A stretch of 64,000 bases of DNA, taken from NCBI RefSeq assembly GCF_058153355.1, contig NZ_CM177019.1. One strand, 5' to 3'. The notes under the pieces were generated by a model. That model was not told where the DNA came from. It worked only from the letters and a program-made list of their open reading frames with translations, and did no database searches. Positions 11,585 to 20,591 of this stretch are shown here, in pieces; position 1 is the stretch's first letter; each line of letters starts with the position of its first letter. The translations under genes were made by a program, and so were the position numbers.

Positions 11585-11850
<266 letters not shown>

Positions 11851-13154
11851 CGCTGGTAGTTGTACAACTGCTTTTTGCTCTCGGGCAGTAAATCAATATC
11901 CACCGGGGTAAATCCACGTTCCTGGAACCAGTGAATACTGCGCGTGGTCAGTACAAACAATTTGCTTAATCCGCTTTGCTTCGCCTGAGCGGCAATGCGC
12001 TCCAGCAAAACCTCGCCCCTTGATGAGCTGCGGTAATCCGGGTGAACGGCCACACAGGCCATTTCCCCAATCTTCTCTTCCGGGAACGGATAGAGTGCTG
12101 CGCAGGCAATAGTCGTGTTATCGCGCTGAATAATAGTGAATTTGTCGATTTCCATCTCCAGTTGCTCGCGAGAACGGCGTACCAGAATACCTTGCTGCTC
12201 CAGTGGGCGAATCAACTCCAGAATGCCGCCAATATCGTTGATGGTTGCGCGACGAATTTGCTCGGCGCTTTCCATCACAATCTGCGTACCGATACCGTCA
12301 CGTGAGAACAACTCTTGCAACAGCGCGCCATCTTCCTGGTAACTAATTAAATGACAGCGACGTACGCCGCTGCGGCAGGCTTTCACCGCACCACGCAAAA
12401 AGCGCACCGTACCGGAGTTGTAATCGCCTTTCTCTTCCTGAGCTTCTACCCGTGCTTGTGCTTCGTTAGGGAAAAGCTCGGAGACAATATCGCCGTCGTC
12501 ATTAGTGACGCCCTGTGAAGAGCAAAAACCAATCATCTTTTCAGCTTTCAGTTTGATGGCCAGTTGAGTGGCGATCTCTTCCGAGGTCAGATTAAAGCTC
12601 TCGCCAGTGACTGAAACCGCGACCGGCCCCAGCAGCACTATCGCACCGCTGTCCAGTTGACGATGAATCGCATCTTCGTCAATCCGCCGGATACGCCCGC
12701 TATGGCAGTAATCCACACCGTCATCCACGCCCAGCGGCTGGGCAATAATAAAATTGCCACTGACGACGTTGATATGCGCGCCCTGCAGCGGCGTGTTATT
12801 GAGACTCATCGACAGGCGAGCAGTAATATCCAGTTGCAATGTTCCCGCAGCCTGCTTCACCAGTTCTAGTGTTTTGGCGTCGGTCACGCGTATATTTTTG
12901 TGATATAGCGGTTCGTGGTGATGCGCTGCCAGATTCGCATCGATCTGCGGGCGCGCTCCATAGACCACGACCAGACGGATGCCGAGGCTGTGCAGCAACC
13001 CGATATCATTAACGATACTGGAGAAATTCTCATGCTCAATGGCTTCACCGCCGAGCATGATGACAAACGTTTTTCCCCGGTGGGTATTGATATAAGGAAC
13101 CGAATGGCGGAATCCCTCGACCAACTCGGTTTTACGTTCCTTCACCACGGCACA

Positions 13155-13200
13155 CCTCTTTGCATGATTATTCGTAATTATTGTATTTTTATTCTGTTTT
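13155..13200 (-). promoter_or_regulatory. Putative ArgR operator (ARG boxes) overlapping the argA promoter
   Basis: AT-rich imperfect palindromes (reverse strand: cagaataaaaataca, aattacgaataatcatgca) just upstream of the argA RBS; resembles the ARG box consensus TnTGAATwwwwATTCAnw. Confidence 0.4.
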
Positions 13201-13378
13201 TTCACTGGGTGCAAGTGCAAATTTTACGCATGAGCAACTTTTTTATCAGTAATGCCGTGAATATAAAAAGAATGTTTACCGTTTATTAGATGACAGATTA
13301 TGCGTCTTTCGCTAAAGTTTCCGGTCAAATTAGTCGTTTATTTGTTACACAGCTTAGATTTTTTTGCTCGGGAGATGC

Positions 13379-14632
13379 ATGTCGGGATCCAACACAGCAA
13401 TCAGCCGTCGTCGTTTACTGCAAGGCGCGGGTGCCATGTGGCTATTGAGCGTAAGTCAGGTCAGTCTGGCTGCGGTCAGCCAGGTCGTGGCGGTGCGCGT
13501 CTGGCCTGCGTCCAGCTACACCCGTGTGACGGTAGAATCTAATCGTCAGCTGAAATATAAGCAGTTCGCGTTGAGTAACCCTGAACGCGTGGTGGTGGAT
13601 ATCGAAGATGTAAACCTGAACTCAGTGCTCAAGGGGATGGCGGCACAAATTCGTGCTGATGACCCGTTCATCAAGTCGGCGCGCGTCGGGCAGTTTGACC
13701 CGCAAACCGTGCGGATGGTTTTTGAGTTAAAGCAAAACGTAAAACCGCAGCTGTTTGCCCTTGCTCCGGTCGCCGGGTTTAAAGAGCGTCTGGTGATGGA
13801 TCTCTATCCTGCCAATGCTCAGGACATGCAGGACCCGCTGCTGGCGCTGCTGGAGGATTACAATAAAGGCGATCTCGAAAAGCAGGTGCCGCCTGCGCAG
13901 AGTGGCCCGCAGCCAGGCAAAGCAGGGCGCGATCGTCCGATTGTCATTATGCTTGACCCTGGCCATGGCGGCGAAGACTCCGGTGCGGTGGGGAAATACA
14001 AAACGCGTGAAAAAGACGTGGTATTGCAAATTGCCCGCCGTTTGCGCTCTCTGATTGAGAAAGAGGGCAATATGAAAGTTTACATGACCCGTAATGAAGA
14101 CATCTTCATTCCGTTGCAAGTGCGCGTAGCAAAAGCACAGAAACAGCGTGCTGACTTGTTTGTCTCTATTCATGCCGATGCCTTTACCAGTCGCCAGCCG
14201 AGCGGTTCCTCTGTGTTTGCGCTCTCTACCAAAGGTGCAACCAGTACCGCGGCAAAATATCTGGCGCAAACTCAGAACGCCTCGGACTTGATTGGTGGCG
14301 TGAGTAAGAGCGGCGACCGTTATGTCGACCATACTATGTTCGATATGGTGCAGTCGCTGACCATTGCCGACAGTCTGAAGTTTGGTAAAGCTGTGTTGAA
14401 TAAGCTCGGTAAAATCAACAAGCTGCATAAAAATCAGGTTGAACAAGCCGGGTTTGCCGTGCTGAAAGCGCCTGATATACCCTCCATTTTGGTCGAAACG
14501 GCGTTTATCAGTAACGTTGAGGAAGAACGTAAACTGAAAACGGCAACCTTCCAGCAGGAAGTTGCGGAATCAATCCTCGCAGGGATAAAAGCGTATTTTG
14601 CCGATGGGGCGACGCTGGCGAGAAGGGGATAA
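13379..14632 (+). CDS. amiC: N-acetylmuramoyl-L-alanine amidase AmiC (Tat-exported)
   Basis: 417 aa from [20 protein letters not shown] (twin-arginine signal); AMIN domain and amidase_3 domain; divergent from argA. Confidence 0.93.
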
Positions 14633-14805
14633 TGTTTTTATTTATTCAATGAATTTATATTTCGTTGAATAGATAATATTTACCTGAATATTAGACGTTG
14701 GTTTTGTGACTGATGTCGAATATTTGAATGTCGGCTTGAAAAATAAGCCGACCATCTCTTTAATTAAGCACAATTCCGTGTAATGTATATGCATTAGTTA
14801 ATCAT

Positions 14806-14878
14806 CTTGTAACTGTTAAATCAGGCAAGGCAATGTTTGAAGTAATTATTACTTCTGACGTGCCTTGCCTTTTTTTTT
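14806..14878 (+). promoter_or_regulatory. RAT-like antiterminator target overlapping an intrinsic terminator, in the leader of the antiterminator gene
   Basis: cttGTAACTGttaaatCAGGCAAGGCA resembles the RAT consensus GGATTGTTACTG...GCAGGCAAAACC; stem caggcaaggca / tgccttgcc with nested palindrome gaagtaat-t-attacttc, followed by a run of 9 T. Confidence 0.6.
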
Positions 14879-14889
14879 GGAGCTATGGA

Positions 14890-15714
14890 ATGATCATCGA
14901 AAAAGTCATGAACAATAATTGTGTACAGGCATCGATGAATGGACAGGAGGTTATCATTTCTGGGCCTGGCGTCGGTTACAACAAAAAATATGGAATGTCG
15001 GTCCCTGAGCATCCGGCTAACCGGATTTTTTATGTCAGAAATGAACAAAAAAATAAACTCTACAAATTGATTGAACATGTGGATATTGAGTATGTTTTTG
15101 TTGCCGAAAAAATAGTGCAATATGCGGAGAACAATCTCGAAAAAAATCTCAATCCATCGCTACTATTGATTCTTGCTGATCATATTTCGAATGCAATATC
15201 CCGAGTCGCTTCAGGCATACAAATTAATAATGTTTTCCTTGATGAAATCAAAGCGTTGTACAAAGCAGAGTATGCGATAAGTCGCGATGCATTAACTATC
15301 ATTAATGAGCAATTCAGCGTTCAACTTCCTGATGATGAGATTGGTTTTATAGCATTGCATATTTTAAATAATTATGAAAATTCAGTTGATTATGAATCAG
15401 TACGGATTATTGAGTTGTCGCAAATAATCACGGGGCTTATTGAAGTTGTTTATAACAGAAAGGTGGACAGAAGTTCATTTAATTATTCCAGGTTCATGAT
15501 ACACCTTAAATATTTTTCAAGTCGCGTATTATGCAATGAAAAAATAAAACAGAAAGATATTGGTGATCTCTATGAACAGTTTCTTGAGAAAGACATTCTG
15601 TTACAGCGCGCAATTCATGAAATTGAAAGGTATTTGTACGCCACTTTTAAATATGAATTGATTTTGGAAGAAAAACTATATCTCTCTATTCGCACCAAAG
15701 TATTAATGGACTAA
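14890..15714 (+). CDS. BglG/LicT/SacY-family transcription antiterminator (CAT RNA-binding domain plus two PRD domains)
   Basis: 274 aa from MIIEKVMNNNCVQASMNGQEVIISGPGVGY (typical CAT N-terminus); RBS GGAG about 10 nt upstream; ORF track start at 14833 lies inside the leader hairpin. Confidence 0.85.
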   Translation: MIIEKVMNNNCVQASMNGQEVIISGPGVGYNKKYGMSVPEHPANRIFYVRNEQKNKLYKLIEHVDIEYVFVAEKIVQYAENNLEKNLNPSLLLILADHISNAISRVASGIQINNVFLDEIKALYKAEYAISRDALTIINEQFSVQLPDDEIGFIALHILNNYENSVDYESVRIIELSQIITGLIEVVYNRKVDRSSFNYSRFMIHLKYFSSRVLCNEKIKQKDIGDLYEQFLEKDILLQRAIHEIERYLYATFKYELILEEKLYLSIRTKVLMD

Positions 15715-15745
15715 TTATATATAACATTTATATGAGATAACCCGC

Positions 15746-17326
15746 ATGAAACAAAAGAAAGCCTGGAGTTTTTTTCAGAGCCTGGGAAAGGCATTTATGT
15801 ATCCCATCGCTCTGCTAAGTGTATGTGGCATGATGTTAGGGCTAGGAAGTGGTTTAGCCAGCGATGATATGGCAAAATTAATTCCACTACTGGCTATTCC
15901 CGTAATTAAAACCATTCTTGATTTTATTGTTAGCCTTGGTTTGTTTGCCTTTGTCAATTTACCTGTATTGTTTGCGATAGCTATACCTCTGGGGTTATTA
16001 AAAGAGAAAGAGGATAAAGCCTATGGCGCTTTTTCTGGCTTAATTGGTTTCATGGCGATGCATCTGGGAACGAACTTTTATCTTAAACAACATGACTTAT
16101 TGGTCGCTGCTGATCAAATGTCGACACATGGGCAAACCATTATTCTGGGAATCCAGTCCTACAATACCAGTGTGTTGGGTGGGATTATAGCAGGATTATT
16201 AGTCGCCAGTATGTATAAAAAGATCGTTAACTTACGTATTCCTGAATCATTAGGATTTTATAGTGGCCCACGCCTGGTGCCTATTATTACACTGATTGTG
16301 ATGAGCGGATTTGGTCTGATCATCCCTTTTATCTGGCCGCCATTTTTCAATCTTTTCATGCTCATTGGCCACTGGATTTCAACTTCCGGTCCTGTTGGCT
16401 ATTTTTTCTATGCAGTCGCCGAACGCGTGACGATACCTTTTGGTTTAAATCACCTGGTGACGTCAGTTTTCCGCTTTACCCCCATCGGCGGATCGGCAGT
16501 GATCGGCGGAGAAGAGTATTATGGCACCCTGAACATGTTTATGGCGTACGTCAAAGAGAATGCGGTCATTCCGCTGGATTTGGCGGGGAAAATGGAACAG
16601 GGCAAACTGATGATTCAGTATGGTCTGGCTGGTGCCGCGCTGGCGATGTATCGCACTGCTCATGCTCAAAACAGAAAAGCTATCAAAGCATTGCTTATTT
16701 CCGGGGTGCTTACAGTCATTATTGGCGGCGTCAGCGAACCGATTGAGTTTCTGTTCTTATTTGTCAGTCCACTGCTATTTGTCTTCCATGCTTTTATGAA
16801 TGGATTCGCCAACATGGTCTTGCCATATATGGGCGTGAAGATGGGATTTACTGGCGATCTGATTCAATTTATTAGCTTTGGCGTATTGCGTGGCACAAGA
16901 ACAGGTTGGCCAATAGCGGTGTGTGTCGAAGTGGCCTATTTCTTTATTTATTACTTTGTGTTCCGTTGGACTATTCTCAAATTTAACCTGATGACGGTAG
17001 GCCGTGAAGAGTCCAGTCCTGTCACGCTGAACGCTCATGAGGATACGGCTATAGCGGATATCCCAACGCTTGATAAATCAGAGCTGCAAGCAGCGGAGCA
17101 GATGGTTAAGGCACTTGGTGGTAAAGAGAATATTAAATCCCTGGATAATTGCGTAACTCGTTTACGTTTAACAATCGCAGATATGGGATTGATTGACGAG
17201 GCAGCAATAAAAAGAGCTGGCGGAATTGCGGTTGTTAAACTTGATCAAAATACCCTACAAGTCATTATCGGTACTAAAGTCATCGCCTTGCGTCGGGATA
17301 TGGATAACTACATGGGGATATGCTGA
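15746..17326 (+). CDS. PTS glucose-family EIICB component, MalX-like, no EIIA domain
   Basis: 526 aa; multi-pass EIIC; C-terminal EIIB with phosphorylatable Cys in LDNCVTRLRL; several blocks resemble E. coli MalX as recalled. Confidence 0.88.
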   Translation: MKQKKAWSFFQSLGKAFMYPIALLSVCGMMLGLGSGLASDDMAKLIPLLAIPVIKTILDFIVSLGLFAFVNLPVLFAIAIPLGLLKEKEDKAYGAFSGLIGFMAMHLGTNFYLKQHDLLVAADQMSTHGQTIILGIQSYNTSVLGGIIAGLLVASMYKKIVNLRIPESLGFYSGPRLVPIITLIVMSGFGLIIPFIWPPFFNLFMLIGHWISTSGPVGYFFYAVAERVTIPFGLNHLVTSVFRFTPIGGSAVIGGEEYYGTLNMFMAYVKENAVIPLDLAGKMEQGKLMIQYGLAGAALAMYRTAHAQNRKAIKALLISGVLTVIIGGVSEPIEFLFLFVSPLLFVFHAFMNGFANMVLPYMGVKMGFTGDLIQFISFGVLRGTRTGWPIAVCVEVAYFFIYYFVFRWTILKFNLMTVGREESSPVTLNAHEDTAIADIPTLDKSELQAAEQMVKALGGKENIKSLDNCVTRLRLTIADMGLIDEAAIKRAGGIAVVKLDQNTLQVIIGTKVIALRRDMDNYMGIC

Positions 17327-18501
17327 TGGATGTTTTTAATACTCCTATTTCCCGCAAAGGAACATATTGTACCCAATGGGACTTTTGCGAGGACAGATTT
17401 GGTGTAAAAGATGTATTACCATTCTCTATTTCAGATATGGATCTTCCGATACCGGAAGCTATCATCAGGGCATTAAGAAAACGTCTGGAACACCCGATTT
17501 TAGGGTACAGCCGTTGGCAGCATGATGACTATCTGAATGCGATAGTCAATTGGTATCATCAACAATATAAAACTGAAATCAAACCAGAATGGATCACCTA
17601 TAGCCCAAGCGTGATGTACTCCATTGCTAAAGCAATAGAGTTATTGACATCGCATGGTGATAATATTCTCGTTTTTACACCTGTCTATAATGCATTTTTT
17701 GATATAATTAAACATAGCGAGAGAAATATTCTGACAGCCTCTTTGATTATAAAAAATGAGGGGGGCTACGCTATCAATTGGCAAGATTTTGATCTTAAGA
17801 TTCAAAGCGCAAAGATGGTGTTATTATGTAATCCTCATAACCCGACAGGAACCGTCTGGTCGGAAGAAGAGCTGCATAAAATCGCTGCAAGCTGTGCAAG
17901 ACATAATGTCTGGTTATGTTCAGATGAAATTCACAGTGATTTTGTTTTTAATCGTAGCTTTACATCTGCGCTTAAAATAAAAAAAGAAAAAGTAGTGGTG
18001 TTTAATTCGATATCGAAGACATTTAATGTTCCTGCGCTAACAGGATCGTATATGATTTCAACTGACGATAATTTTAATCATAAGTTCAGAACGATATCAA
18101 GATATCGCGATTTTGTAAACTCCCCATCCGTACTGAATATAATTGCAACTATTATTGCCTATAACGAATGTGAGGGATGGTTAACGTCATTAAAGGCACA
18201 TATTGCCTCTAACATTCAATTCACCCAGCAGTATCTGAACGAAAATACTCCAGAATTGATCGTAAGGCCAGCTGATGGTTGCTATTTTTCGTGGATAGAT
18301 TGCTCTGCTATTGGTTATCCCTTTGATGAATTCTACAGTCGATTAATTCATGAAGGCAAAGTGGGCATTATGGCGGGGAATGTCTATGGAACGGAGGGGG
18401 AGGGCTACCTTCGTCTGAACCTGGCCTGCGGTCGAGAAAAATTATATATGGGGCTTACGCGTCTTGCGAGTGTAATTAAAAATATTAATCAAGGAAAATA
18501 A
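17326..18501 (+). CDS. PLP-dependent C-S lyase of the MalY/PatB family (class I/II aminotransferase fold); alternative start 17320
   Basis: GTYCTQWDF motif near the N-terminus and SISKTFNVPALTGSY with the PLP lysine, both parallel to MalY as recalled; ATG overlaps the PTS stop (TGATG), suggesting translational coupling. Confidence 0.85.
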   Translation: MDVFNTPISRKGTYCTQWDFCEDRFGVKDVLPFSISDMDLPIPEAIIRALRKRLEHPILGYSRWQHDDYLNAIVNWYHQQYKTEIKPEWITYSPSVMYSIAKAIELLTSHGDNILVFTPVYNAFFDIIKHSERNILTASLIIKNEGGYAINWQDFDLKIQSAKMVLLCNPHNPTGTVWSEEELHKIAASCARHNVWLCSDEIHSDFVFNRSFTSALKIKKEKVVVFNSISKTFNVPALTGSYMISTDDNFNHKFRTISRYRDFVNSPSVLNIIATIIAYNECEGWLTSLKAHIASNIQFTQQYLNENTPELIVRPADGCYFSWIDCSAIGYPFDEFYSRLIHEGKVGIMAGNVYGTEGEGYLRLNLACGREKLYMGLTRLASVIKNINQGK

Positions 18502-18503
18502 AA

Positions 18504-19100
18504 ATGAACAGCACGGATCTTATCCATCTCATTAAACATTTTATGCGTAACGAACATAAAGCAGTTGAAGAAGTTATTGATTCTCCCCTTTCGGAGGTCG
18601 CAAATTTAATTAAAGTATTACAGTCTTGTCAGGGGAAAGTTGTTTTTATTGGTGTCGGTAAGTCCGGTATTATTGCCCGAAAACTCGCCGCAACATTTGC
18701 CAGCACTGGAACTCCCTCGTTTTTTGTTCACGGTACTGAAGCCGTACACGGCGATCTTGGGATGGTGGCGAAAGATGATGTTGTTATTCTTATTTCAAAC
18801 AGTGGTGAGACGACAGAAATCCTGGCAACACTACCTAGTCTGAAAAAAATGGGTAATTATTTGATCTCCTTTACCCGCAGTCATCGCTCATCGCTTGCGA
18901 TAAGTTGTGATTTATCCGTTGAAATTCCCGTAAAAAGTGAGGCGGATAATTTAGGTTTAGCGCCGTCATGCTCATCAACAGTCGTTCTGGTTGTTGGTGA
19001 TGCGGTGGCGCTTGCGCTCTCCGAATTGAAAAAGTTTACTCGTGCTGATTTCGGCTTATATCATCCAGGAGGTGCGCTCGGTATTAAAGCAAACTCATAA
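18504..19100 (+). CDS. Stand-alone SIS-domain sugar-phosphate isomerase, similar to the KpsF/GutQ catalytic domain, without CBS domains
   Basis: 198 aa; motifs VVFIGVGKSGIIARKLAATFASTGTPSFFVH and ILISNSGET resemble the SIS domain of arabinose-5-phosphate isomerases; starts 2 bp after the lyase stop with RBS AAGGAAAA. Confidence 0.8.
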   Translation: MNSTDLIHLIKHFMRNEHKAVEEVIDSPLSEVANLIKVLQSCQGKVVFIGVGKSGIIARKLAATFASTGTPSFFVHGTEAVHGDLGMVAKDDVVILISNSGETTEILATLPSLKKMGNYLISFTRSHRSSLAISCDLSVEIPVKSEADNLGLAPSCSSTVVLVVGDAVALALSELKKFTRADFGLYHPGGALGIKANS

Positions 19101-19170
19101 TTTTAGAATATAAAACAGTAACCGGTCACGCCATCTTTTGGGGTGGCGTTCATTGATGTGAGTGTCAGCT

Positions 19171-20118
19171 ATGAAAAACGTTCTGGTCACCGTTCCCAGC
19201 TTTTCAGCGCGTTGTGTTTCTGCCAGCAAGCTGCTAAGAGAAAATCATTTTAACCTTATTATCAAGAATAATGTGGAGCATCTGGTTAAATCAGAATCCA
19301 CAGTATTACGAGAATCTATTTGCGCAGTCATTGCCGGAAAAGATTGTTATCAAGCGGATACGTTATCGCGACTACCAGGAGTGAAAATAATATCGAGATT
19401 CGGGACAGGGATTGATAATATTGATCTTCATACGGCTCGACAATCAGGTATTGTGGTCAATAATGCTGTTGGGATTAATTCAAATGCAGTCGCGGAATTT
19501 ATCATTGGTCTTATTTTTGCGAGCATGAGAAATATCCCCGGTAGCTATCATGCAATGCAAAATGGTTATTGGGGCGAGTCGCATGGCTGCGAGTTACAAG
19601 GTAAACGTATTGGCCTGCTTGGCTATGGCAATATTGGCAAAACACTGGCGAAAAGGTTATCTGGTTTTGATGTTGAGCTTTTAGCTTTTGACAAACAACC
19701 CGATTTCCAGGCCGCAGGCAAAGATGGAGTTCAGTTCGTATCAATTGAAGATATCTTTATGCAGTCTCATGTCATCATCGTTCTTTTGCCATTTTCTCCG
19801 GAGCTGGAGAACTTCATTAGTCATAAATATTTGTCGATGATGCGCAATGGTGCTCTTATCATCAACGCCGCAAGGGGAAAGTTGCTGGATGAGGGTGCTT
19901 TACTTCAGGTAATTGAAGAACGAAATGTTTTTGCAGCACTGGATGTGTTTAGCTCTGAACCGCTAGCGCAATTTAGCCCATTGCTACATGCCAGGAATAT
20001 CATTACAACGCCGCATATTGCGGCCGCCACCGTTGAGTCATACCAGCAAACCGGGATATACGTTGCCAGGTCGATAATAGATTTCTTTGCAGGAAGGGAG
20101 ATAAAAAACGTGCTGTGA
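19171..20118 (+). CDS. D-isomer-specific 2-hydroxyacid dehydrogenase family protein (NAD-binding)
   Basis: Rossmann motif GLLGYGNIGKTLAKRL; family hallmarks of catalytic Arg, Glu and His appear present; ORF track offers a GTG start at 19162. Confidence 0.8.
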   Translation: MKNVLVTVPSFSARCVSASKLLRENHFNLIIKNNVEHLVKSESTVLRESICAVIAGKDCYQADTLSRLPGVKIISRFGTGIDNIDLHTARQSGIVVNNAVGINSNAVAEFIIGLIFASMRNIPGSYHAMQNGYWGESHGCELQGKRIGLLGYGNIGKTLAKRLSGFDVELLAFDKQPDFQAAGKDGVQFVSIEDIFMQSHVIIVLLPFSPELENFISHKYLSMMRNGALIINAARGKLLDEGALLQVIEERNVFAALDVFSSEPLAQFSPLLHARNIITTPHIAAATVESYQQTGIYVARSIIDFFAGREIKNVL

Positions 20119-20143
20119 GGTCAGCTAAGGAAGATTTCAGGTA

Positions 20144-20177
20144 CAAAAAAACCGCAATCTGTGAAACACATTGCGGT
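20144..20177 (-). terminator. Intrinsic terminator of the tRNA-fMet operon; also the right boundary of the accessory cassette
   Basis: Hairpin accgcaat...attgcggt with a run of 7 T on the minus strand. Confidence 0.7.
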
Positions 20178-20196
20178 TTATCAGCATCATAAGTGT

Positions 20197-20273
<77 letters not shown>

Positions 20274-20316
20274 TCACCGTACTGCTTTACTTCATCAAAT
20301 TTTGATTGGTTGCGGG

Positions 20317-20393
<77 letters not shown>

Positions 20394-20591
20394 CGCACTA
20401 TACTCCGCTCGCGTTTTCATGCAACCTTTTTTTTACCCGGATCACGGATTTGGCATGATTTTGAGCAAAAACAAATCACTAAAGCCTGTTTTTTGTGCAA
20501 AATTTGCGTCAGGGAGAGGCTGCTCATTTCATTAAACGCGGCGGTTTGTTATCTTCATTGCGCCTTATTTTTTAAACTGAAGAAGAGAACA

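Follow-up and report, generated by a model that had tools for sequence, protein, structure and literature searches.

A PTS permease gene and a PLP-dependent lyase gene that resemble malX and malY lie side by side in a 64-kb stretch of DNA (the window), and they raise the question of whether they form a second MalXY system tied to the maltose regulon or serve a pathway of their own. We conclude, with a probability of roughly 0.8, that the two genes form the core of a five-gene PTS operon for catabolism, induced by its substrate, and that the locus is the amiC-metV cluster already described in UPEC CFT073 (c3405-c3410 of PAI-metV). The operon sits between amiC and tRNA-Met and has the flagged pair as its middle, so that the interval on which the sequence-only reading had focused (15746-18501) covers two of the five genes and leaves out the leader. 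The features of the locus are as follows, in the order in which they occur.

14740..14806, + strand: conserved upstream block, probably the operon promoter; similarity to the Citrobacter and Atlantibacter modules begins at 14739-14740
14805..14832, + strand: RAT, the predicted site for the CAT domain of the antiterminator; TTGTAACTGTTAAATCAGGCAAG at 14807-14829
14823..14878, + strand: intrinsic terminator, hairpin 14823-14870 plus T9 run 14870-14878; its 5' arm overlaps the RAT
14890..15714, + strand: BglG/LicT-family transcription antiterminator, 274 aa (NCBIfam LicT, Pfam CAT_RBD and PRD)
15746..17326, + strand: PTS glucose-family EIICB permease, MalX-like, without an EIIA domain, 526 aa (TIGR02004 and PtsG models)
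17326..18501, + strand: PatB/MalY-family PLP-dependent beta C-S lyase, 391 aa (TIGR04350), coupled to the EIICB gene
18504..19100, + strand: single-domain SIS sugar-phosphate isomerase, 198 aa, without a CBS pair; orthologue of CFT073 c3406
19171..20118, + strand: D-isomer-specific 2-hydroxyacid dehydrogenase, annotated as 'phosphoglycerate dehydrogenase' (PGDH, GhrB and glyoxylate reductase models; PDB matches)
20197..20383, - strand: two tRNA-Met genes of the metZWV locus (ARAGORN and Rfam tRNA), the right-hand border of the cluster

The cluster is AT-rich, with a GC content of 34-45% against 50-56% in its flanks, which makes it a likely H-NS target, and it could be silenced by H-NS under most conditions, a point against the catabolic-operon reading. 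The 3' end of the first tRNA-Met points towards the operon. The T6SS genes that adjoin the cluster in PAI-metV are missing from the window, so that the operon is immediately next to tRNA-Met. Direct repeats and tRNA-derived att sites were looked for at the cluster borders and none were found.

Ahead of the operon lies a canonical RAT that overlaps a terminator, and both elements show compensatory changes across genera. In the 64-kb window the RAT pattern matches only at 14807-14829, where 0.01 matches were expected by chance, and the same pattern is matched in the leader of K-12 bglG and in that of every orthologous locus. Across 10 leaders, 97% of the RAT cells are paired, with one compensatory pair (G-C to A-U), while the terminator has 91% of its cells paired, five pairs with compensatory changes, and slid controls at 36-54%. 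The terminator hairpin dominates the fold of the 113-nt leader (14780-14892; -33.3 kcal/mol, z = -4.2). In BglG/SacY (LicT) systems, too, the regulated genes are preceded by an intrinsic terminator that a RAT partly overlaps. A simple terminator scan, which reported sites at chance level (4 found versus 4.2 expected), missed the leader terminator because its stem is long and interrupted; an Rfam scan of 14400-20500 with permissive E-values returned tRNAs only and no match to a curated RAT family. Upstream of the RAT, the motifs CATCTC...ATT...GTGTAnnGTATA are conserved, and the Citrobacter module used in this comparison lies elsewhere in the chromosome. Promoter hexamers could not be made out in this block, and its probable role as the operon promoter is therefore one that we infer.

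The antiterminator gene starts at the ATG at 14890, after GGAG; the ATG at 14833 given in the open reading frame list was rejected as a start, as it would fall inside the terminator. The protein scores 227.7 bits with NCBIfam LicT over residues 1-268, under the equivalog cut-off, and carries an N-terminal CAT RNA-binding domain (Pfam CAT_RBD, residues 1-55, E = 2.7e-14) followed by a PRD1 (Pfam E = 1.6e-23). The second PRD is weak in Pfam (E 0.085), although the LicT model still aligns over residues 1-268. The equivalents of BglG His101, His160 and His208 are invariant, and the fourth LicT-type histidine is replaced by Arg (Asn in BglG); this Arg and the weak second PRD count against the reading as an antitermination operon. 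Taken with the RAT and its overlapping terminator, the CAT_RBD and PRD gene at 14890-15714 supports the earlier suggestion that the pair is under antiterminator control.

The permease and lyase reading frames (15746-17326 and 17326-18501) bear out the translational coupling noted at first sight: at ATATGCTGATGGATG, the A of the EIICB stop codon TGA (17324-17326) is also the first letter of the lyase ATG at 17326, giving a TGATG overlap. RefSeq places the lyase start at this codon in a 99.8%-identical strain, and homologues in six genera share it. The permease has an EIIC domain followed by an EIIB domain (EIIB_glc TIGR00826, 62 bits against a cut-off of 45.75, residues 412-509), in which the phospho-cysteine is kept (the Cys in LDNCVTRLRL). 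The malX models are its best-scoring ones, but it nonetheless falls outside the MalX equivalog, with 536.6 bits for TIGR02004 (cut-off 632.2) and 525.9 for PRK10110 (cut-off 665); the PtsG model gives 352.6. Its identity is 42-43% to K-12 MalX (BLASTP E 4e-144), 37% to PtsG, 70% to the C. difficile protein and 85% to the Citrobacter protein.

The lyase passes the cut-off of the PatB C-S lyase model TIGR04350 (368.3 bits against 340) and keeps all of the PLP and active-site residues examined (K233, Y121, N173, D201, H204, S230, S232 and R372). From these features it is predicted to be a catalytically competent, beta-eliminating PLP enzyme. Identity to K-12 MalY is 36% (BLASTP, E 3e-97), to the C. 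difficile orthologue 49%, and to PatB-family proteins encoded in other, unrelated PTS settings 44-48%. The C. difficile PLP transferase structures 4DGT/4DQ6 were not equated with CD3029, as their score of 289 bits is under the ~400 for the 49%-identical orthologue.

The isomerase has a KdsD-type SIS domain (PDB 2XHZ, E = 1e-40). The KdsD model covers it at 197 bits over residues 30-195 only, at profile positions 36-201 of 328, and in this profile match the C-terminal tandem CBS domains of KpsF/GutQ/KdsD are absent from the 198-aa protein; TIGR00393 gives 191.8 bits, below its cut-off of 203.7. PDB entries 5UQI/5VHU also match (E = 8.8e-121); 5UQI has the exact sequence of the CFT073 protein (100% identity), which in turn is 97% identical to the isomerase of the window. 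In the 2011 work of Mosberg and colleagues, CFT073 c3406 reportedly interconverts arabinose-5-P and ribulose-5-P and complements mutants without arabinose-5-phosphate isomerase. Deletion of c3406 alone is said to have caused no colonisation defect in that work, which counts against the catabolic-operon reading. The last gene product falls short of the SerA equivalogs (TIGR01327, 210 bits against 454; PRK11790, 150.5 against 404), and by its profile matches it is classed as a generic D-2-hydroxyacid dehydrogenase; among the versions of the module, those of Escherichia, Citrobacter and Atlantibacter alone carry its gene.

At the species level it is correct to speak of a second pair, since canonical malXY is present in 5423 of 5426 complete E. 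coli genomes and this cluster in 1686-1688 of them, about 31%. Colinear modules were also found in C. difficile, Citrobacter, Enterobacter, Atlantibacter, E. whittamii and Enterococcus termitis, and the four-gene core of antiterminator, EIICB, lyase and SIS is kept from C. difficile and Enterococcus to the enterobacteria. A scan of genome contigs with a single protein gave only 7 true loci, and the taxonomic distribution is thus a lower bound. Likeness to MalX and MalY, as first noticed, holds in pairwise alignment, whereas the proposed paralogy is not supported: the Firmicute proteins are closer for the permease (70% against 43% for MalX) and for the lyase (49% against 36% for MalY). For the lyase only, even PatB proteins from unrelated contexts are closer than MalY, a result that the sequence-only reading had itself named as speaking against its view. 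Judged by these identities, the pair is not a recent MalXY duplicate and is a xenologue nearer to the Firmicute pairs. With its own BglG-type antiterminator instead of MalI, it is distinct from malXY and very probably has its own substrate, as had been supposed.

We propose that the operon would work as follows. Transcription would begin upstream of 14806 and end by default at the terminator of the leader (14823-14878). During transport of the cognate carbohydrate, the EIICB would cease to phosphorylate PRD1 of the antiterminator, following the BglG/LicT paradigm; the antiterminator would then dimerise, its CAT domain would bind the RAT (14805-14832), and the terminator could not form. RNA polymerase would read through the five genes, that of the antiterminator included. 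Because the operon encodes no EIIA, the EIICB is proposed to import and phosphorylate its sugar through the general EIIA-Glc (Crr). The lyase, acting as a beta-eliminating PLP enzyme and not as a modulator of MalT, would process the phosphorylated product together with the SIS isomerase and the 2-hydroxyacid dehydrogenase towards central metabolism, presumably in some such order. We know of no precedent for a C-S lyase in a sugar pathway, and this counts against the catabolic reading. Literature searches found no physiological substrate for MalX/MalY-type pairs or PTS-linked PatB enzymes. The literature met on such enzymes consisted only of a paper on an L. sakei MalY racemase/lyase and of C-S lyase reviews. 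D-arabinose, glucosaminate, Amadori or S-glycosyl conjugates and O-glycosyl-serine were considered as substrates; each is without supporting data, and we therefore put forward no single sugar.

It had been suggested that the lyase might cross-talk with MalT or with sulfur metabolism, and the two parts of this suggestion fared differently. If the pair were a MalXY paralogue and its lyase, like MalY, bound MalT and counteracted it, an unnamed sugar would be tied to the maltose regulon. The order of EIICB and lyase genes is indeed that of malX-malY, the EIICB scores highest with MalX models, and the top solved structure for the lyase is MalY (1D2F, 291 bits). However, the residues through which MalY touches MalT in the cryo-EM complex (A84, C181, D182, E185, S218, N219, A221 and R222; PMC10427625) are replaced in the lyase at every one of the eight positions (A84E, C181E, D182E, E185H, S218L, N219K, A221K and R222K), seven times non-conservatively, with small or neutral residues giving way to charged or bulky ones, and V. 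furnissii MalY, with only two such substitutions, does not repress (PMC10427625). The same substitutions are found in C. difficile and other orthologues, which suggests that the MalT patch is specific to MalY, and the xenologous origin of the pair points the same way. The replacement of all eight contacts makes cross-talk with MalT unlikely, and we give the MalT-antagonist role as a whole very little chance. The link to cysteine and sulfur metabolism remains plausible, because the PatB cut-off is passed, the catalytic residues are kept, and C. difficile MalY-CD3029 is a strongly regulated enzyme with cysteine desulfhydrase activity in vitro (PMC6143707, PMC5767170). On this basis the lyase might be mainly a sulfur amino-acid enzyme, a cysteine desulfhydrase or cystathionase yielding H2S, pyruvate and ammonia, with the PTS and antiterminator merely tying its expression to carbohydrate and the transported sugar left untouched; E. 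coli MalY, too, has no known sugar-related substrate. Against this, the lyase gene is coupled to that of the EIICB and colinear with EIICB and SIS genes across phyla, and genes of the PatB family are repeatedly found, along with peptidase genes, next to PTS genes of other families, so that a role on a transported conjugate is suggested instead. We regard a purely sulfur-metabolic role as rather doubtful.

Two further explanations concern the operon as a whole. It might be a cryptic remnant like K-12 bgl, rarely or never expressed, as its AT-rich DNA, its absence from 69% of E. coli genomes and the occasional lyase-SIS fusion ORFs in some strains might lead one to expect. Purifying selection on all five genes (dN/dS 0.025-0.14, with 0.10-0.14 for the lyase, at an allelic dS of up to 0.57) and frames intact in all loci examined speak against this, and a c3405-10 deletion mutant reportedly showed a defect in urinary-tract colonisation of mice in the 2009 study of Lloyd and colleagues; silence of this kind is improbable. 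Alternatively, the cluster might not be catabolic but stand in for KdsD/GutQ from a virulence island, making arabinose-5-phosphate for the synthesis of Kdo, LPS or capsule, given that the SIS protein is KdsD-like, that its CFT073 counterpart is said to have the isomerase activity and to complement, and that the CFT073 cluster lies inside PAI-metV. Yet C. difficile and Enterococcus, Gram-positives that lack LPS, have the module too, a sugar-PTS antiterminator governs it, the single-domain SIS homologues of Firmicutes are located in other sugar-uptake clusters with kinases and transporters, and the window has the operon without the T6SS island; the chance of such a back-up role is slight indeed.

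Within the catabolic operon that we favour, the four-gene core may, as a tentative proposal only, make up a pathway devoted to a gut-derived sugar-amino-acid or thio-conjugate or an amino-sugar acid, in which the PLP enzyme would act on the phosphorylated PTS product and the isomerase would pass arabinose-5-P into the pentose phosphate pathway. If true, this would for the first time explain in physiological terms why MalX-type permeases are paired with MalY-type lyases, a long-standing puzzle, and it might account for the fitness defect reported in UPEC. About one third of E. coli genomes carry the cluster, including the ST131, UTI89 and CFT073 lineages, and it is an annotated accessory operon that has been published before. 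What is added here is that the core is common to C. difficile (70% permease identity), that the lyase is intact without the MalT patch, and that PatB lyases recur by PTS genes. Together, these three points leave a narrower question, namely which of the compounds transported would require a PLP beta-lyase, and they steer experiments away from MalT cross-talk.

Among known systems, CFT073 c3405-c3410 carries all five genes beside amiC in an unchanged order, with protein identities of 93-99%; Bryant et al. (2010, PMC2831201) name it as a 'PTS system, maltose/glucose specific' block of PAI-CFT073-metV. It differs in that its operon adjoins the T6SS genes of PAI-metV, and the allele of the window is about 94% identical to it in nucleotides. 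The C. difficile module CD3027-CD3031, of which CD3027-CD3030 is expressed as an operon (PMC6143707, PMC5767170), shares the colinear antiterminator, EIICB, lyase and SIS genes, the EIICB/lyase overlap and RAT/terminator control, with identities of 70% for EIICB (CD3030), 49% for the lyase (CD3029) and 52% for SIS. It adds its own EIIA-Glc gene, lacks the dehydrogenase, and has its RAT-terminators as four tandem 104-nt units between the antiterminator and EIICB genes, whereas the RAT in the window lies upstream of the antiterminator.

K-12 malI-malXY likewise has a glucose-family EIICB followed by a PatB/MalY-type PLP lyase and no EIIA, but it is controlled by the LacI-type repressor MalI, has a 9-nt gap between malX and malY where the window has the TGATG overlap, and lacks genes for a SIS protein and a dehydrogenase. 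E. coli bglGFB and the B. subtilis licT-bglPH and sacY-type systems also combine a CAT and PRD antiterminator with a RAT that overlaps a terminator and with a neighbouring cognate EII, and bgl also has its first terminator ahead of the antiterminator gene; in contrast to bgl, the antiterminator of the window is 30% identical to BglG, its permease is MalX-like and not of the beta-glucoside type, and there is no phospho-glycosidase. A SIS enzyme within a PTS sugar operon is also found with gutQ in the E. coli glucitol PTS operon and in the frl/gfr deglycase operons. GutQ is an arabinose-5-phosphate isomerase as well, and its model matches the window isomerase at 163 bits. Compared with gutQ and with the PTS and SIS deglycase operons frl/gfr (PMC5270733), the isomerase described here has no CBS domains, belongs with another PTS family, and is nearest to KdsD and not to the FrlB/GlmS-type deglycases.

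The EIICB and lyase genes belong to a larger unit of five co-directional genes, which lies between amiC and two tRNA-Met genes:

13364-14632, amiC, left neighbour of the block
14890-15714, + strand, antiterminator gene (CAT_RBD+PRD)
15746-17326, + strand, EIICB gene (526 aa in the ORF table)
17326-18501, + strand, PLP lyase gene (ORF table; ATG at 17326)
18504-19100, + strand, SIS protein gene (198 aa)
19171-20118, + strand, D-2-hydroxyacid dehydrogenase gene
20197-20383, - strand, two tRNA-Met genes, right neighbours

The block is AT-rich, with a GC content of 34-45% versus 50-56% in its flanks. The two tRNA-Met copies are identical and 110 nt apart; strain 24A16CRGN010 (~99% identical) has three at this locus.

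The EIICB stop codon (TGA, 17324-17326) and the lyase ATG share a TGATG overlap (ATATGCTGATGGATG). RefSeq annotates the lyase from this ATG in an E. coli genome with 99.8% identity, and the aligned lyase homologues of six genera start at this very position. In BLASTP searches of the K-12 proteins, the EIICB was 42% identical to MalX (E = 4e-144) and the lyase 36% identical to MalY (E = 3e-97). The sequence-only reading had described a coupled pair resembling MalX and MalY, and these identities, in agreement with the coordinates and the overlap, confirmed its observation. It had also called the pair a second one. Since the canonical malXY is present in 5423 of 5426 complete E. coli genomes, the cluster, found in 1686-1688 of them (ST131 and UTI89 among the carriers), is a real second pair where it occurs. 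The observation was correct, and the interpretation was partly right.

The best NCBIfam models for the EIICB were those of MalX, yet its score fell under their cut-offs (536.6 vs 632.2). The lyase passed the PatB C-S lyase cut-off (368.3 vs 340), the match of the SIS protein was limited to the isomerase half of KdsD/GutQ, and the dehydrogenase scored far under the SerA cut-off. The cysteine of the EIIB domain is conserved, and the EIICB has no EIIA domain. In an A-rich run (18495-18508, AAAATAAAAATG), the stop codon of the lyase gene and the start codon of the SIS gene are separated by 2 nt, and a frameshift at this point could join the two proteins; some E. coli/Shigella records (P0002-P0005, P0009, P0010) hold lyase-SIS fusion ORFs of 550-592 aa (PF00155 + PF01380).

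Table. Identity of homologues to the window proteins (EIICB; lyase).
Citrobacter: 85%; 69%
Enterobacter: 77%; 51%
C. difficile: 70%; 49%
Granulicatella (other PTS context): n/a; 48%
C. intestinale (other PTS context): n/a; 44%
K-12 MalX / MalY: 43%; 36%
K-12 PtsG: 37%; n/a

Judged by these identities, the pair is no recent duplicate of MalXY. For the lyase, the outcome that the sequence-only reading had itself named as refuting was observed, as the 36% identity to MalY does not exceed that to family members from unrelated contexts (44-48%); its closest solved structure is MalY. A colinear antiterminator-EIICB-lyase-SIS core was found in C. difficile (CD3027-CD3031), and likewise in Enterococcus termitis, Enterobacter, Citrobacter, Atlantibacter and E. 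whittamii, while the dehydrogenase gene is confined to the Escherichia, Citrobacter and Atlantibacter versions.

Antiterminator control was supported by the CAT_RBD+PRD gene and by an upstream ribonucleic antiterminator (RAT) overlapping a terminator with compensatory changes. The RAT motif (TTGTAACTGTTAAATCAGGCAAG, 14807-14829), upstream of the antiterminator gene, is the sole pattern match in 64 kb (0.01 expected), and the pattern also matches the leaders of K-12 bglG and of all orthologous loci retrieved. Its 3' part doubles as the 5' arm of a long terminator hairpin (14823-14870), after which comes a T9 run, and this hairpin dominates the 113-nt leader (14780-14892; -33.3 kcal/mol, z = -4.2). 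Across ten enterobacterial leaders, the terminator was 91% paired, with compensatory changes at five pairs (slid controls 36-54%), and the RAT helices reached 97% pairing, including one G-C to A-U swap. In the antiterminator, the histidines that correspond to BglG His101, His160 and His208 are conserved. We infer a standard BglG/LicT-type mechanism, with the phosphorylation logic taken from the family paradigm: transcription would stop at the leader terminator by default, and when the EIICB is occupied with substrate, the antiterminator would bind the RAT and allow read-through of the entire operon, its own gene included.

Two further elements lie upstream. A CRP-like half-palindrome (TGTGA-N6-TCGAA, 14702-14725), ~85 nt upstream of the RAT, is kept in Escherichia leaders, outside the block common with Citrobacter. 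A hairpin without a T-run (GTCGGCTTGAAAAATAAGCCGAC, 14730-14752), 100 nt past the amiC stop, may serve either to terminate amiC or to insulate the operon promoter.

The C. difficile module has its own EIIA-Glc gene, whereas the E. coli operon has none; because the EIICB also lacks this domain, Crr is the probable phosphoryl donor in E. coli. Between the C. difficile antiterminator and EIICB genes (L003, 4974-5392) are four tandem 104-nt units with a 92% match, each with a RAT (GGATTGTAACTGGTTAAGCAGGCAAAACC) and, after it, a terminator; read-through would thus need four successive antitermination events.

The lyase had also been proposed to cross-talk with MalT. In the MalT-MalY cryo-EM structure, MalY makes contact through A84, C181, D182, E185, S218, N219, A221 and R222, and V. 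furnissii MalY fails to repress with just the two changes D182C and S218V (PMC10427625). In a nine-sequence alignment, all eight positions are replaced in the window lyase (E, E, E, H, L, K, K and K, respectively), while the PLP lysine K233 and Y121, N173, D201, H204, S230, S232 and R372 are invariant. Cross-talk with MalT is therefore unlikely on residue evidence, and the lyase is likely to be catalytically competent. The proposed link to cysteine metabolism is still plausible by analogy, since cysteine desulfhydrase activity in vitro and co-expression with the PTS genes are reported for the C. difficile orthologue (PMC6143707, PMC5767170).

Genes of the PatB/MalY family are repeatedly found next to other PTS families together with peptidases. 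At the Granulicatella and Clostridium intestinale loci (L008, L011), the homologues adjoin fructose-/cellobiose-type PTS, PRD regulators and M20/M24/M42 peptidases, and a L. sakei homologue shows the same PTS-peptidase-lyase association (PMC5845896). In Neobacillus, an EIICB-lyase pair of the MalX clade is accompanied by an RpiR/SIS regulator, and single-domain SIS homologues occur within other sugar-uptake clusters. As leads only, these contexts are compatible with a substrate that is taken up as a sugar conjugate or as a derivative of an amino sugar, whose product would enter the pentose phosphate pathway via arabinose-5-P.

Pairwise dN/dS was 0.025-0.14 over all five genes, highest in the lyase but still clearly constrained, and dS between E. 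coli alleles reached 0.14-0.57. In Atlantibacter hermannii (L016, 1900-13584), the operon occupies the argA-amiC / tRNA-Met-mltA position, as in Escherichia; in Citrobacter it lies at a different chromosomal site. The shared site points to either old residence with repeated loss or transfer via flanking homology. At the core gene amiC, the window is about 94% identical to most E. coli: the identity is 90-95% for 5333 of 5425 genomes and reaches 99% or more for 18 only. Against CFT073, recC-recD is 96-97% identical and argA-amiC-operon 93.9%, which suggests that argA-amiC (11788-14632) is a divergent segment imported along with the operon. Border repeats were looked for at the cluster edges and none were found, and the locus does not resemble a typical integrase island. 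It resembles an ancient presence/absence polymorphism, transferred together with its flanking DNA through homologous recombination.

The locus is already described and annotated. The window SIS protein matches PDB 5UQI/5VHU (E = 9e-121), and the 5UQI sequence is 97% identical to it and 100% identical to the CFT073 SIS protein, c3406. Mosberg et al. reportedly described c3406 as an arabinose-5-phosphate isomerase that lacks CBS domains and viewed the cluster as an operon serving an unknown carbohydrate, and Lloyd et al. (2009) are said to have observed a colonisation defect upon c3405-10 deletion. Bryant et al. (PMC2831201) placed c3405-c3410 in PAI-CFT073-metV and listed them among the blocks conserved in UPEC, under 'PTS system, maltose/glucose specific'. 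In CFT073, the same five genes stand beside amiC and adjoin the type VI secretion (T6SS) genes of PAI-metV, whereas in the window the operon is present and the T6SS island is absent.
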